The notes under the pieces are model-generated. The model was not told where the DNA came from. It saw nothing but the letters and a program-made list of their open reading frames with translations, and ran no database searches. Made by a program: the position numbers and the translations under genes. Below are positions 1,964-13,034 of a stretch of 34,856 bases of DNA, in pieces (position 1 is the first letter of the stretch; each line of letters begins with the position of its first letter). The stretch lies in the UHGV virus genome UHGV-0299912; one strand, given 5' to 3'. The DNA comes from a virus.

Positions 1964-2503
1964 TCATATTGCCCCCAGCATGGTGGTAACCATCGCCATT
2001 AATGGACCAGCCAGATCCGGGTCCACACGAAACATCGACACAATACCTTCACTCATTTCCTTCAGTTTCTGGTGGCGTGGTGCGTTGAGAATGACCGCCT
2101 GCTTTGCCTCACTGAGTTCCTTATCCATTTCAGCCAACCGAGCCATGAAGCTATCCTGCTCAACCAGGTGGCCGCGATATTCCAGCGGTAGTACCGCCAG
2201 AATTGCCGGGGTCAGTTCACGCACGTTATTTCGGTATTTTTCAGAATCGAATTTGTTATCGAGGAAGCGGAACAGCTTCTGGCGTGCACGGCTGACATCA
2301 TCAGGGAAATCGATGGTGCCGCCGCCCTGCTCCCGATACTCATTCACAATGAGTGCGGCAACAACATCCTGATTATCTGCAGCCGACCAGGCGCGAACGG
2401 CATCACGGATTTTTTCGTGGCCTGGCGCCTGTTTTGTTTGAGAATGATTTATCACCGCAGTCGGGCTAAATCCGCTAGTCTGTTGGTATGTAAGTGGTTG
2501 CAT
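1964..2503 (-). CDS. YdaT-like protein in the cII position (putative CII functional analogue)
   Basis: 179-aa ORF between cro and O. Motifs NEYREQGGG and PAILAVLPLEYRGHL resemble Rac prophage YdaT as I recall it (EEYLRQGGG, PAILAILPRELRHRL). Confidence 0.7.
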   Translation of the reverse strand: MQPLTYQQTSGFSPTAVINHSQTKQAPGHEKIRDAVRAWSAADNQDVVAALIVNEYREQGGGTIDFPDDVSRARQKLFRFLDNKFDSEKYRNNVRELTPAILAVLPLEYRGHLVEQDSFMARLAEMDKELSEAKQAVILNAPRHQKLKEMSEGIVSMFRVDPDLAGPLMAMVTTMLGAI

Positions 2504-2572
2504 AATTGACTCCTTTAGTTTGAATTGACTGTTAAGTTGATTGCTTATTGTTAAAGAGCGTGAAATGGAAAT

Positions 2573-2803
2573 TTAAGCTGCGTTCTTTTCGGTGTGTGGA
2601 AACAACTTCGGAAGATCCGGGCGAATCTGGTATGCCTTCACTACTCCACCAGTAGCCGTAACAATGCTGCCGACATGTTCAGGGGATACCTTTGCTTTGT
2701 TGTGAAGCCACTTATAGACGGCCTGCTGTGAAACTTCGCAAGCAGCGCCCAGTTTCTTTTGTGAACCAACGATATTGATCGCTGTTTTGATAGCTGGGTT
2801 CAT
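2573..2803 (-). CDS. cro: Cro-like HTH regulator (YdaS family)
   Basis: 76-aa ORF divergent from the repressor gene; GGAGG Shine-Dalgarno 5 nt upstream of the ATG; helix-turn-helix-like segment (QKKLGAACEVSQQAVYKW). Confidence 0.8.
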   Translation of the reverse strand: MNPAIKTAINIVGSQKKLGAACEVSQQAVYKWLHNKAKVSPEHVGSIVTATGGVVKAYQIRPDLPKLFPHTEKNAA

Positions 2804-2907
2804 AACAACCTCCGTGGTTAATTTGAATCAAGATTAAAACTATGGTTGTTTTTAGTCAACAACCATTTTCGTTTGATGGAATAAAACCTTGGTTGTACAT
2901 TTGGACT
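2804..2907. promoter_or_regulatory. Immunity-region operator/promoter interval (candidate PR, PRM and operator palindrome)
   Basis: 25-bp palindrome ATGGTTGTT-N7-AACAACCAT at 2842..2866. Candidate PR on the minus strand: -35 TTGACT (2859..2854), 17-bp spacer, -10 TAATCT (2836..2831). Candidate PRM on the plus strand: -35 TTGATG (2873..2878), 17-bp spacer, -10 TACATT (2896..2901), which would give a leaderless cI mRNA starting near ATG 2908. Confidence 0.5.
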
Positions 2908-3597
2908 ATGAAAACAACACTCTCAGAAAGACTTAAAGAAGCTAGATTAGCGCGAGGCCTTACACAAAAGGCGCTTGGGGATTTGGTCGGGGTTAGACAG
3001 GCTGCTATTCAGAAAATCGAAACAGGGAAAGCTAATCAAACAACTAAAATCGTGGAGATCGCGAACGCTTTGGGTGTGCGCGCAGAATGGTTATCTTCTG
3101 GCGTTGGAAATATGTCAGACAGTACAGTGCAACCAATACAATCAACTGTCAGCCATTCCAAATACTTCAAGATTGACGTTCTTGATATAGAAGTCAGTGC
3201 TGGGCCGGGAGTCATCAACCGTGAGTTTGTAGAAGTTCTACGCTCGGTTGAGTACTCGTTTGACGATGCTCGTCACATGTTCGATGGTAGGAAGGCGGAA
3301 AATATCCGCATCATTAACGTGCGTGGTGACAGCATGTCAGGAACGATCGAACCAGGTGATCTGCTGTTCGTTGATATCACAGTTAAATCTTTCGACGGTG
3401 ATGGTATCTATGCGTTTCTGTACGACGACACAGCCCATGTAAAGCGCCTGCAAATGATGAAGGATAAGCTGCTGGTCATCTCTGATAACAAAAGCTACTC
3501 ACCGTGGGACCCGATCGAGAAAGACGAGATGAACCGGGTGTTCATCTTCGGTAAGGTTATTGGGAGCATGCCGCAGACATATAGGAAGCATGGGTAG
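2908..3597 (+). CDS. cI: CI-type prophage repressor (N-terminal XRE HTH, C-terminal LexA/S24 autopeptidase domain)
   Basis: ORF-track frame 2842..3597. I prefer the internal ATG at 2908 (MKTTLSERLKEARL...) because 2842 lies inside the operator palindrome. HTH (LTQKALGDLVGVRQAAIQKIE) and S24-like C-terminal region (RGDSM...K) are present. Confidence 0.88.
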   Translation: MKTTLSERLKEARLARGLTQKALGDLVGVRQAAIQKIETGKANQTTKIVEIANALGVRAEWLSSGVGNMSDSTVQPIQSTVSHSKYFKIDVLDIEVSAGPGVINREFVEVLRSVEYSFDDARHMFDGRKAENIRIINVRGDSMSGTIEPGDLLFVDITVKSFDGDGIYAFLYDDTAHVKRLQMMKDKLLVISDNKSYSPWDPIEKDEMNRVFIFGKVIGSMPQTYRKHG

Positions 3598-3718
3598 TAC
3601 CAATTAAAAATTATCAACTGGGCATTGTGCTCATTCAGTAAAGAACTAATTCCTATCTTTGCTCTAGGTAGTAATATTAAGCCACCGCAATAATATCTTT
3701 ACCTAACGGCGTAAGAAT

Positions 3719-3745
3719 CCCGGTCACCGTGCCGGGTTTTCTTTT
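3719..3745 (+). terminator. Rho-independent terminator downstream of cI
   Basis: CCCGG-tcaccgtg-CCGGG hairpin followed by TTTTCTTTT. Confidence 0.55.
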
Positions 3746-3880
3746 GCCCTCCCCTCATCACACACACCGTTAAAAAAACCACCATAACCTCCCTTCAGTT
3801 ATCGCTATGCGATTCAAGTCACAAAATAAATCCATCCTAAATACAACCAGTTATATCTAAAAAAACCAATAAAACAACTT

Positions 3881-3908
3881 TTGTTGTTGACGACAAAACA
3901 ACTATAGT
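3881..3908 (+). promoter_or_regulatory. Candidate leftward early promoter (pL-like) with overlapping GTTGTT/AACAAC inverted repeat
   Basis: -35 TTGTTG (3881..3886), 16-bp spacer, -10 TATAGT (3903..3908). Inverted repeat GTTGTT (3883..3888) and AACAAC (3897..3902) shares its half-site with the cro-cI palindrome. Confidence 0.4.
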
Positions 3909-4197
3909 TTTAAATGAGTTCATCGCAACAACACAACGATACGGCAACCACCTGATTCACCGTTGCGATGACCGCTTAGATCCGCAGCTTGAATTTCAGC
4001 AGGCTCCGGGGAGTGCGAGGGGTGAAGCGGACGCGTGAACGTCGGTGTGACCAGCTGAAATCAACCCAACTCAACACCTCATACCTCAGTCGCTTCAACG
4101 AGGCGGCTTAGTTATGACAACCGGCGGCCATCCACCGCCTGAATACGCGCAGAAGTCTCTATATGTTCAGCAGCCCAGCTTACGGGCAGGAGTTTTT

Positions 4198-4404
4198 ATG
4201 GTTCATCAACATTACGGAACGCAGACCGTTAATCGAGGTGCGGTCATGCCAGGAATGCTGGTCAAACACAAAGATGGTACCTGGACTGCATCAGCTAATT
4301 TACGCGGACGGCTATATCTGCATCACGGCATCGAGCGCACTTATACCCGTGATTTGCTCGTGGAAGTTTTTCTCGACGGACGAGGCAACGGCCTGAATCA
4401 CTAA
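4198..4404 (+). CDS. Hypothetical small early protein (kil/cIII position upstream of gam)
   Basis: ORF-track frame 4114..4404. Internal ATG at 4198 has a strong AGGAG Shine-Dalgarno 5 nt upstream. No recognisable similarity and no Arg-rich N-like motif. Confidence 0.35.
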   Translation: MVHQHYGTQTVNRGAVMPGMLVKHKDGTWTASANLRGRLYLHHGIERTYTRDLLVEVFLDGRGNGLNH

Positions 4405-4479
4405 TCCCCTTTCCTGTTTTCCTAATCAGCCTGGCATTTCGCGGGCGATATTTTCACAGCCATTTTCAGGAGTTCAGCC

Positions 4480-4776
4480 ATGAACGCTTATTACATTCAG
4501 GATCGTCTTGAGGCTCAGAGCTGGGCGCGTCACTACCAGCAGATTGCCCGTGAAGAGAAAGAGGCAGAACTGGCAGACGACATGGAAAAAGGTCTTCCAC
4601 AGCACCTGTTTGAATCACTCTGCATCGATCATTTGCAACGCCACGGGGCCAGCAAAAAAGCCATTACCCGTGCGTTTGATGACGATGTTGAGTTTCAGGA
4701 GCGCATGGCAGAACACATCCGGTACATGGTTGAAACCATTGCTCACCACCAGGTTGATATTGATTCAGAGGTATAA
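4480..4776 (+). CDS. gam: Gam, host RecBCD inhibitor (short GamS form)
   Basis: 98-aa translation ([21 protein letters not shown]...[10 protein letters not shown]) recognised as lambda GamS; AGGAG Shine-Dalgarno upstream. Confidence 0.93.
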
Positions 4777-4781
4777 AACGA

Positions 4782-5567
4782 ATGAGTACAGCACTCGCAA
4801 CGCTGGCAGGGAAGCTGGCTGAACGTGTCGGCATGGATTCTGTCGACCCACAGGAACTGATCACCACTCTTCGCCAGACGGCATTTAAAGGTGATGCCAG
4901 CGATGCGCAGTTCATCGCATTGTTGATCGTCGCCAACCAGTACGGCCTTAATCCGTGGACGAAAGAAATTTACGCCTTCCCTGATAAGCAGAACGGCATC
5001 GTTCCGGTGGTGGGCGTTGATGGCTGGTCCCGCATCATCAATGAAAACCAGCAGTTTGATGGCATGGACTTTGAGCAGGACAATGAATCCTGTACATGCC
5101 GGATTTACCGCAAGGACCGTAATCATCCGATCTGCGTTACCGAATGGATGGATGAATGCCGCCGCGAACCATTCAAAACCCGCGAAGGCAGAGAAATCAC
5201 GGGGCCGTGGCAGTCGCATCCCAAACGGATGTTACGGCATAAAGCCATGATTCAGTGTGCCCGTCTCGCCTTCGGATTTGCTGGTATCTATGACAAGGAT
5301 GAAGCCGAGCGCATTGTCGAAAATACCGCATACACTGCAGAACGTCAGCCGGAACGCGACATCACTCCGGTTAACGATGAAACCATGCAGGAGATTAACA
5401 CTCTGCTGATTGCCCTGGACAAAACATGGGATGACGACTTATTGCCGCTCTGTTCCCAGATATTTCGCCGCGACATTCGCGCATCGTCAGAACTGACACA
5501 GGCCGAAGCAGTGAAAGCTCTTGGATTCCTGAAACAGAAAGCCACTGAGCAGAAGGTGGCAGCATGA
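4782..5567 (+). CDS. bet: Bet (Red-beta) single-strand annealing recombinase
   Basis: 261-aa translation recognised as lambda Bet ([20 protein letters not shown]...). Confidence 0.93.
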
Positions 5568-6463: not shown

Positions 6464-8471
<2,008 letters not shown>

Positions 8472-12180: not shown

Positions 12181-13034
12181 TGGCATTATTACTGGAGCCA
12201 CTGCAGTTCACCTTTATGAGTCACGCACTGCTGATTTCACTGGTAGTTTCCATACCCTGTGCGCTGCTGTCGGTCTTTCTGGTCCTGAAAGGCTGGGCAC
12301 TGATGGGTGACGCGATGAGTCATGCGGTTTTTCCTGGCATCGTGCTTGCCTGGATTCTGGGGTTACCTTTGGCTACAGGGGCATTCGTCGCCGGAGTATT
12401 CTGCGCGGTGGCGACGGGATACCTGAAAGACAACAGCCGAATCAAGCAAGATACAGTGATGGGGATTGTTTTTTCTGGCATGTTTGCCGCAGGTCTGATT
12501 TTGTATATTGCAGTCAAACCAGACGTACATCTTGACCATATTCTTTTCGGCGACATGCTCGGGATAACCATCGGCGATATAATCCAGACGGTGATTATTG
12601 CTGGGCTGGTTACACTTGTTATTAGCGTAAAATGGCGAGATTTTTTGCTGTTCAGCTTTGATTATCAACAGGCGCAGGTAAGCGGTTTGCATACGAGATG
12701 GCTGCATTATGGGCTGCTGTGCATGGTCTCTCTGACCATTGTGGCGACGCTGAAAGCGGTAGGTATTATTCTCTCCATTTCTCTGCTCATTGCGCCTGGC
12801 GCCATTGCGGTACTCCTGACACAACGCTTTTATATTGCGCTCCTACTGGCGACTGGCATATCGGTAATAGTGTCAATGATCGGTGTCTGGCTGTCCTTTT
12901 TTATCGACAGCGCACCAGCTCCGACGATTGTCGTCTTATTCGCGGTCGCGTTCATCATGACGTTTACCGTTACCAGCATCAACGCACGCACAAAGGGAAA
13001 CGCCCATACACAGGATCTGTTATCACCCAATTAG
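12177..13034 (+). CDS. sitD: SitD (Mn/Fe ABC transporter permease)
   Basis: 285-aa polytopic membrane protein of the ABC-3 permease family, immediately downstream of sitC. Confidence 0.88.
   Translation: MMALLLEPLQFTFMSHALLISLVVSIPCALLSVFLVLKGWALMGDAMSHAVFPGIVLAWILGLPLATGAFVAGVFCAVATGYLKDNSRIKQDTVMGIVFSGMFAAGLILYIAVKPDVHLDHILFGDMLGITIGDIIQTVIIAGLVTLVISVKWRDFLLFSFDYQQAQVSGLHTRWLHYGLLCMVSLTIVATLKAVGIILSISLLIAPGAIAVLLTQRFYIALLLATGISVIVSMIGVWLSFFIDSAPAPTIVVLFAVAFIMTFTVTSINARTKGNAHTQDLLSPN

Follow-up and report, generated by a model that had tools for sequence, protein, structure and literature searches.

The interval at positions 3598–4479 of the viral genome UHGV-0299912 (the whole 34,856-nt stretch is called the window here) lies between the repressor gene cI and the recombination gene gam. 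In this DLP12/lambda-like prophage it marks the far boundary of cI and holds the sequences that control the early-left (pL) operon, and we read it, with a probability of roughly 0.55, as the control region of a natural lambdoid phage that has neither an N protein nor a put RNA and that transcribes its early-left operon independently of N. Once repressor leaves the OL palindrome, RNA polymerase would initiate at pL near position 3922, cross an untranslated leader of ∼190 nt (from the pL start to the AUG at 4114 or the AUG at 4198), and run straight into kil, gam, bet, and exo. With no intrinsic terminator in the leader, no modification by N-nut or put would be needed, and N-independent (“Q-only”) early transcription is plausible. 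Shown here are the anatomy of the region, the lack of N, nut, and put, its mosaic relation to other phages, and covariation in one hairpin; the start site, N-independence, and the roles of both stems are inferred. The interval and the gene that follows it contain these features (ORF, open reading frame; SD, Shine–Dalgarno sequence):

3719–3746, + strand: intrinsic terminator closing cI/moron transcription, stem CCCGGT/GCCGGG, then TTTTCTTTTG
3876–3909, no strand assigned: OL operator palindrome, core GTTGTT (3883–3888) and AACAAC (3897–3902), overlapping the pL −35
3887–3915, + strand: predicted pL promoter, −35 TTGACG (3887–3892), 17 nt, −10 TTAAAT (3910–3915)
3920–3971, + strand: stem at the predicted 5′ end of the RNA, 3920–3929 with 3962–3971, closing a 32-nt C/A-rich loop
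3972–4079, + strand: group-specific non-coding leader, G-rich core at 4000–4059, then a C-rich, G-poor tract
4080–4116, + strand: covarying hairpin, CAUA.CU.AGUCGCUUC-AAC-GAGGCGGCU.AG.UAUG
4114–4139, + strand: near-invariant block ATGACAACCGGCGGCCATCCACCGCC, a possible mini-ORF start (MTTGGHPPP...), holding hairpin 2
4186–4404, + strand: kil, SD AGGAG at 4186–4190, ATG at 4198, stop at 4402–4404, 68 aa
4397–4479, + strand: lambda-homologous kil-gam spacer, remnant of the lambda long-form gam frame
4480–4776, + strand: gam, short 98-aa form (Pfam PF06064, 3.4e-65, 98 of 98 profile positions)

The pL region and the search for N, nut, and put

No Pfam or PHROG profile matched any ORF of the interval except Kil, and the lambda N, phi80 N, and HK022 Nun proteins, used as tblastn queries, gave nothing better than E 2 in 3598–4479. 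A boxA, with up to three mismatches allowed, was absent from 3900–4200, and no GNRA-like pentaloop hairpin of the boxB type was seen in folds of the leader. These searches bear out the initial annotation of this DNA, which had reported no Arg-rich N-like protein and no boxA/boxB in the leader and had listed rexAB, N, cIII, and a lambda-type kil as missing between cI and gam. The small ORF that it placed at 4198–4404 is present as well. Searched against databases as a possible N homologue, its product matched PHROG 294 instead (“Kil protein for bacterial septation inhibition,” E 2.7e-38, positions 4–80 of the 83-position profile). In the prophage of E. coli 2A (locus L211), the Prokaryotic Genome Annotation Pipeline (PGAP) labels the coding sequence at 12319–12525 a “cell division inhibitor protein,” and kil is annotated in the records of HK225, mEp237, 4A7, and other phages. 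By homology, the product of 4198–4404 is a predicted Kil-family inhibitor of FtsZ/septation and not an N homologue.

One candidate for a cryptic mini-N, a 40-aa Arg-rich ORF at 3989–4111 (..VKRTRERRCDQL..; ..RLRGVRGVKRTRERRCDQL..), was rejected: it would begin at a TTG lacking an SD, it has no family match, and it is non-coding, since 1-nt and 5-nt indels among relatives, at 3992, 4019, and 4062–4066, shift its frame. It is probably a by-product of G-rich sequence.

The initial annotation had also raised the possibility of an HK022 put-like RNA. We built a covariance model from eight put RNAs (putL and putR sequences from HK022, HK639, CobraSix, S9-5, phiEt88, and UPF_BP1), the alignment of which displays two covarying stems; a put RNA is marked by two stem-loops and the conserved sequence GAACGGC..., GGCG..GG..AGGAUGA..CAAUG. 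As a positive control, the model scored its own family at 62–101 bits. Run with filters off over the whole window, it found nothing in 2400–4500, the best match anywhere reaching 8.7 bits (E 0.55). It likewise found nothing in 78 kb of early regions from four N-less relatives (PhiR34_1, the E. coli 2A prophage, PhiR47_2, and 4A7), and a regular-expression search for put was negative for the window-type leader. No leader motif was repeated on the pR transcript, and nothing significant emerged in the pR 5′ untranslated region or the cro-ydaT spacer; the best local alignment between leader and pR transcript, 17 nt inside gene O, was reached by 3 of 200 shuffles. Given the negative model and the lack of a motif shared by pL and pR, the put-like reading is unsupported. 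A scan of 2400–5000 against Rfam release 15 (E ≤ 10) gave no match in the leader; the chance-level matches (E 0.9–8.4) were mir-7940 and bxd_7, both outside the leader, and a 17-bit ctRNA_p42d over the cI terminator. HK639 (L090) and CobraSix (L086) have a strong putL (88–98 bits) and no putR-type match in their right operons; the HK639 record annotates an “M3-like RNA” after cII (L090 1353–1412) instead of putR.

Upstream of pL, the terminator noted in the initial annotation was found at 3719–3746 (CCCGGT-CACCGT-GCCGGG plus a T-run; −12.2 kcal/mol, z −2.3). Homology in most of 80 related viral contigs begins at positions 119–122 of the query (window ∼3719), with differing genes after cI, and this predicted terminator is the left edge of a block common to relatives with different post-cI genes. 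Some relatives, L001 (1648–3076) and L002 (1660–3076), have a two-gene module where lambda has rexAB, after cI and ahead of the shared terminator, labelled GevT toxin/GevA antitoxin in one record and ASCH-domain protein in another. Positions 3748–3825, downstream of the cI terminator and ahead of the operators, form a C-rich block that is kept in immunity types A and B and absent in C; the operators of A and B differ although the block is kept.

The half-site of the OL inverted repeat, AACTTTTGTTGTT / AACAACTATAGTT, recurs in the OR palindrome, ATGGTTGTT-N7-AACAACCAT, at 2842–2866. A candidate promoter had been placed at 3881–3908; the homology-backed promoter lies 6–7 nt farther downstream. 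Immunity types B and C carry TTGATA-17-TATTAT and TTGACT-17-TATTGT, stronger hexamers, in alignment columns identical to those of pL, and the annotated pL of phi80 has matching geometry and an initial transcript CATCG.... Since the columns of the other immunity types and the phi80 layout agree, we infer a transcription start near A3922. On its sequence pL has the marks of a sigma-70 promoter, a 17-nt hexamer spacing and an overlapping repressor palindrome like that of OR; a generic promoter scan omitted it because its −10 lacks an A at position 2. A promoter-like TTGCGA-16-TATAGT on the − strand (3928–3901) overlaps pL, is directed away from kil, and uses the palindromic AACTATAGTT; it could be due to chance.

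The leader and the covarying hairpin ahead of kil

The initial annotation had described a structured leader of ∼200 nt with two long-range pairings. The leader as a whole is no more stable than shuffled sequence (z −0.4), so that description is not borne out, and the two pairings fared differently. The first is real: CATCGCAAC (3921–3929) is the exact complement of GTTGCGATG (3962–3970), giving 10 bp when T3920–A3971 is counted, where we estimate that ∼0.07 exact 9-nt complements would be expected by chance per 200 nt. Folded alone, this 5′ stem reaches −13.1 kcal/mol (z −3.3; 2 of 200 shuffles were as good), RNAalifold picks it, and it can pair in 37–40 of 40 distinct relatives. Among the same 40 there were no compensatory pairs, only one-sided changes (C to U, A to G). 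Because it begins at the predicted first transcribed bases, the pairing suggests a 5′-terminal stem, which might protect the transcript from 5′-end-dependent decay. The second pairing actually lies at 3993–4000/4054–4061, 1–2 nt from where it had been placed, and is at chance level: by our own arithmetic ∼0.3 8-nt complements are expected in 200 nt, the segment has a z of +0.8, and the pairing is invariant in relatives and unused in both the minimum free energy (MFE) and the RNAalifold folds.

Apparent gaps in relatives at 3989–3991/4062–4064 reflect arbitrary gap placement around a 5-nt CAACY duplication; the relatives read GAAATCAAC too. At 4062–4066 the window has an extra 5-nt CAACC relative to nearly all relatives, and loci L147, L179, and L208 have an extra CAACT instead, a case of slippage in the number of CAACY repeats within the C-rich tract that precedes the conserved hairpin. 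The leader is kept across three immunity types, from ∼3923 or ∼3956 on, a conservation that is uninformative because the relatives compared were chosen by 99% identical Kil. Its group-specific part, 3972–4079, showed no similarity beyond this phage group by blastn, and we found no published account of the leader in the literature on N-less lambdoids, GevT/GevA, or phi80 tL1.

Downstream of this part the sequence is widely shared. By blastn, window 4079–4139 recurs in phi80, HK639, HK225, CobraSix, and S9-5; in HK225 it is 97% identical, against only 72% for the wider match including kil. In phi80, this cassette starts directly after the Rho-independent terminator tL1A, which follows N; in HK639, putL, a pair of ORFs, and a terminator come before it. 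Viral contigs scanned with a pattern yielded 199 cassette copies in 100 distinct contexts, and in the N-type and put-type contexts CATACC comes immediately after a terminator T-run, an arrangement seen in dozens of contigs. Since the cassette follows tL1 in relatives, the window’s leader stands in the place of the N/put-tL1 block, and ∼155 nt of group-specific, terminator-free sequence occupies the position of the nutL-N-tL1 or putL-ORF-tL1 block of relatives. Citrobacter, Enterobacter, Scandinavium, and Huaxiibacter prophages also carry the cassette; these genera are among those listed by a 16-base pattern scan of a genome collection, most matches of which are due to chance. No annotation marks the cassette in the E. 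coli genome records examined; in phage records it is either unannotated or covered by an over-extended Kil or hypothetical-protein ORF. An older phi80 record labels the whole 370 bp a “t-L1 regulatory signal,” and a newer one places a Rho-dependent tL1B ∼120 nt downstream.

The first part of the cassette forms a hairpin, 4080–4116, that folds to −14.8 kcal/mol (z −4.0) and keeps one shape in 17 of 17 distinct variants (−6 to −20 kcal/mol). We counted pairs in a gapless alignment of 32 sequences, from which one or two loop bases and, in one sequence, a single spacer base had been trimmed. Both sides change in seven of the eight tested pairs, and 96% of cells pair, compared with 24–56% when the partner is slid. 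The covariation score was 0.474 versus 0.146 in shuffles, none of 500 of which reached it. This hairpin is the only RNA structure of the leader with comparative support, and its many G-U pairs point to + strand RNA as the folded species. An SD-like GAGG (4100–4103) and the AUG at 4114–4116 are both buried in the stem. The hairpin may limit translation starts upstream of toxic kil, or it may be a processing or stability element.

The near-invariant block that follows is identical over 23 nt in 193 of the 199 copies. It contains hairpin 2 (GGCGG at 4123–4127, CCAUCCA, CCGCC at 4135–4139; −8.9 kcal/mol), the 3′ arm of which varies to CCGTC, CTGCC, or CCGAC. In some relatives a T-run follows hairpin 2, and the HK639 record annotates a terminator over the hairpin-2 stretch and the following T-run (L004 3524–3552); the window copy has no T-run. 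In the window, and in all window-type copies, the ORF from AUG 4114 runs in frame into kil to give 96 aa.

A more speculative reading, which we consider rather improbable, is that 4080–4139, the covarying hairpin with its invariant block, is an undescribed regulatory RNA module, widespread in the early-left operons of enterobacterial lambdoids. Such a module might sit behind tL1 as a gate, coupled to translation, Rho, or processing, on the way into the kil and recombination genes. Given a boxA-only site after cro as well (see below), N-less phages of the window type might draw on host Nus factors and this gate in place of N or put.

Terminators, a boxA after cro, and alternative readings

We found no convincing intrinsic terminator between pL and exo, weak candidates only, and, in the viable relative PhiR34_1, no strong one on the way from pR to Q. 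Four observations weigh against N-independent transcription. The first is a site in the rightward operon:

2548–2560, − strand: perfect boxA CGCUCUUUAACAA (CGCTCTTTAACAA) in the nutR position, 13 nt beyond the cro stop

Nowhere else in the 34.8-kb window is the 12-mer matched exactly; the site lies within the 70-nt cro/ydaT spacer and is kept in relatives having this cro. Its sequence suggests that Nus factors are recruited at least in the rightward operon, and because of it the phage may not be fully antitermination-free. The initial annotation had allowed that canonical nut elements might have been missed: a boxA had been, on the pR side, but no boxB follows it in the window, and the leader has neither. 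In loci L025 and L134, a 12-nt insertion after boxA (at the equivalent of window ∼2525–2535) forms GACUG-AUGAA/AUUAA-CAGUC, a boxB-like 5-bp stem and pentaloop; the insertion is missing from the window and from ∼29 other loci. Second, two good intrinsic terminators lie after exo and before xis-int (L214 2599–2577 and 2002–1984, − strand; L211 15021–15039), where an aid to read-through would be useful. Third, the kil-gam spacer holds, at 4429–4455, a weak hairpin homologous to lambda and a T-run behind it (hairpin 4429–4446, −9.2 kcal/mol, then GATATTTTCA). Fourth, the long untranslated leader contains two C-rich, G-poor tracts that could load Rho, and Rho loading there would imply regulated, not constitutive, passage.

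The E. coli 2A prophage carries a moron between P and the nin genes (L211 3490–8121; an alpha/beta hydrolase and a 3.5-kb inverse autotransporter). It ends in a strong bidirectional terminator (4538–4558), and pR transcription would have to pass the moron to reach Q.

A Rho-sensitive gate is the main rival to N-independent passage. The leader would then be a Rho-dependent attenuator that meters toxic Kil, its C-rich tracts (3921–3960, GC skew −0.47; 4060–4099, GC skew −0.79) loading Rho, and passage into kil-gam-bet-exo would be set by translation from AUG 4114 or 4198 or by the hairpin. Both are 40-nt tracts of a ∼190- to 280-nt untranslated RNA, and the conserved hairpin conceals the first start codon. 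The homologous phi80 cassette lies between the Rho-independent tL1A and the annotated Rho-dependent tL1B, and tL1-bearing relatives have a terminator at the position of the C-rich tract, just upstream of the cassette. The argument is one of base composition; Rho would load less readily on an RNA with this G-rich core and these stems, and plain constitutive read-through fits the arrangement too. We regard the attenuator as doubtful.

The cassette might instead encode a real leader peptide (MTTGGHPPP...), translation of which, with a possible proline-run stall over hairpin 2, would control downstream events: termination at hairpin 2 in the T-run variants and an N-terminally extended, 96-aa Kil here. 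The ATG and 23 nt are almost invariant, many variants keep the C terminus ..EVLY* across in-frame insertions of 2–10 codons, and the frame is open into kil in all window-type copies. A ribosome on the Pro codons would melt hairpin 2, the stretch over which the HK639 terminator is annotated. In every variant, though, the AUG and GAGG are base-paired in a hairpin of −10 to −20 kcal/mol, and the conserved downstream motif GCGCAGAAGTCT is read in all three frames among variants. The frame is kept in only 7 of 12 insert architectures (p ∼0.07 by our own count), no annotation pipeline calls the ORF as a separate gene, and the window copy lacks the T-run after hairpin 2. Replacement of the third and second Pro codons (by T, S, or L) in several species, together with the paired AUG, also weakens a polyproline stall as such. 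A leader peptide is unlikely.

We consider it quite improbable that the leader is a new cis-acting antiterminator RNA, put-like in action and unrelated to put in sequence, that carries polymerase through the terminators before xis-int. What invites the idea is that N is absent and yet intrinsic terminators stand farther down the pL operon; moreover, put-like RNAs have been proposed for N-less lambdoids (phage LLS, PMC12315714), and non-put RNAs are conceivable in view of HK639 and CobraSix, which have putL without a model-matching putR. The leader’s persistence in three immunity types would fit too, were it not for the way the relatives were chosen. It has no put signature and no related second element on the pR transcript, it is as stable as shuffled sequence, and its group-specific part shows no compensatory changes. 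The sole covarying structure, 4080–4116, is an unlikely antiterminator because it occurs also in phages that already have N or put.

That the arrangement is merely a decayed, non-functional prophage remnant from which N and nutL were deleted is very improbable: the window’s pL operon has an IS21-like insertion and the long gam frame is broken, but promoter, operators, and the kil ribosome binding site are intact, and the leader is present in at least 16 phage records and 2225 of 5426 complete E. coli genomes, which argues against decay.

Genomic setting, spread, and relation to other lambdoids

N-independent early-left transcription, the reading we prefer, is set in a prophage with the following early genes upstream of the interval:

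250–951, − strand: P-like gene, replication region
948–1967, − strand: O-like gene, replication region
1964–2503, − strand: YdaT-type gene at the cII position
2573–2803, − strand: YdaS-type cro
2908–3597, + strand: cI-type repressor with helix-turn-helix and S24 peptidase domains (Pfam Peptidase_S24 1.4e-18, HTH_3 5.9e-12)

The mechanically called cI ORF begins at ATG 2842, within the 25-bp OR palindrome; the PGAP start is more likely, at 11029 in L211, an identical prophage, which is equivalent to window 2908. Downstream of the interval the order is gam (4480–4776), bet, and exo. The window is near-identical to lambda from ∼4397, including the gam DNA. As the initial annotation held, a decayed long-form gam leader precedes gam and only the short form can be made: FRSSAM is kept, in-frame stops at 4402–4404 and 4423–4425 precede it, one extra T at 4463–4466 puts the old long-form frame out, and the foreign kil has replaced the DNA that held the long-form start. 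The junction is a mosaic one of an ordinary kind; the Pfam Gam profile, too, is 98 aa long. In the pL operon after exo/orf60a, two ORFs at 6550–8351 (340 and 260 aa) resemble istA/istB of what we take, reading the translations by eye, to be the IS21 family; L211 lacks this insertion despite its identical leader.

The phage type is widespread. A 321-bp query (3880–4200) matched the E. coli 2A prophage, which lies at icd, at 100%, and PGAP annotates there the window’s genes plus Q, the nin region, xis, and int. The PhiR34_1 genome aligns with the full interval at 97% identity, its record lists the same genes for cI, cro, the cII position, O, and P, and it resembles DLP12 (emrE, ybcK-ybcO, rusA, Q, nmpC). 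At least 16 phage genome records share the leader, including PhiR34_1, PhiR47_2, 4A7, Turner, and Perceval, and several of them give a laboratory E. coli strain as host. The leader occurs in the 2225 complete E. coli genomes (41%) at 95–99% identity, and the cassette 4080–4139, in any context, in 2275 of the 5426 (∼42%); the N-less context is by far the commonest cassette context in E. coli.

Both phi80 (pL-nutL-N-tL1A/tL1B-kil) and HK639 (pL-putL-ORFs-terminators) share the window’s order of cI, terminator, operators/pL, leader, kil-type gene, and gam/recombination genes, as well as a homologous initial transcript (CATCG...) and the 60-nt cassette of a hairpin followed by ATGACAACCGGCGGCCATCCACCGCC. 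They differ in having nutL and N, or putL and ORFs, and an intrinsic tL1 before the cassette, where the window has ∼155 nt of unrelated non-coding sequence. With HK022 the window shares the lack of an N gene and a candidate element just downstream of pL, but it has no put match and no right-operon partner, and its group-specific leader gives neither a folding-energy nor a covariation signal. LLS is a natural lambdoid phage lacking an N homologue, for which a put-like mechanism has only been speculated on by its authors (PMC12315714); it has another early-left operon and no Rec module, and in the window type put was tested and excluded. The boxA is identical to the rrn consensus GCUCUUUAACAA and, as in rrn-type boxA/Nus antitermination and other boxA-only Nus targets (PMC5725501, PMC4807359), is accompanied by no phage N, but it lies in the pR operon and not in the pL leader, and no recognisable boxB or boxC follows it. 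Compared with lambda, the window has a similar gam-bet-exo and kil-gam spacer and a perfect boxA at the nutR position; it lacks N, boxB, nutL, cIII, and rexAB, and its kil is of the Rac/P22 type and not lambda’s 47-aa Kil. Deletions of nin yield N-independent lambda derivatives. The window type resembles such phages in that its viable relative PhiR34_1 has no strong terminator from pR to Q.

Lambdoid phages are the textbook example of processive antitermination, by N protein or by put RNA. A very common E. coli prophage type, present in ∼41% of complete genomes, carries neither, and a terminator-free leader in place of the N/put-tL1 block suggests early-left expression without an antiterminator. 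The absence of N is real, but N-less lambdoids had already been noted (PMC12315714), and the question of early transcription in them, raised for LLS in that work, becomes experimentally concrete here. The covarying hairpin before toxic kil is unnamed in databases and absent from Rfam. Together with the N-less boxA after cro, it offers leads on how a prophage meters a lethal gene and uses host Nus factors, and the conserved hairpin and the boxA-only site are parts worth an experiment.

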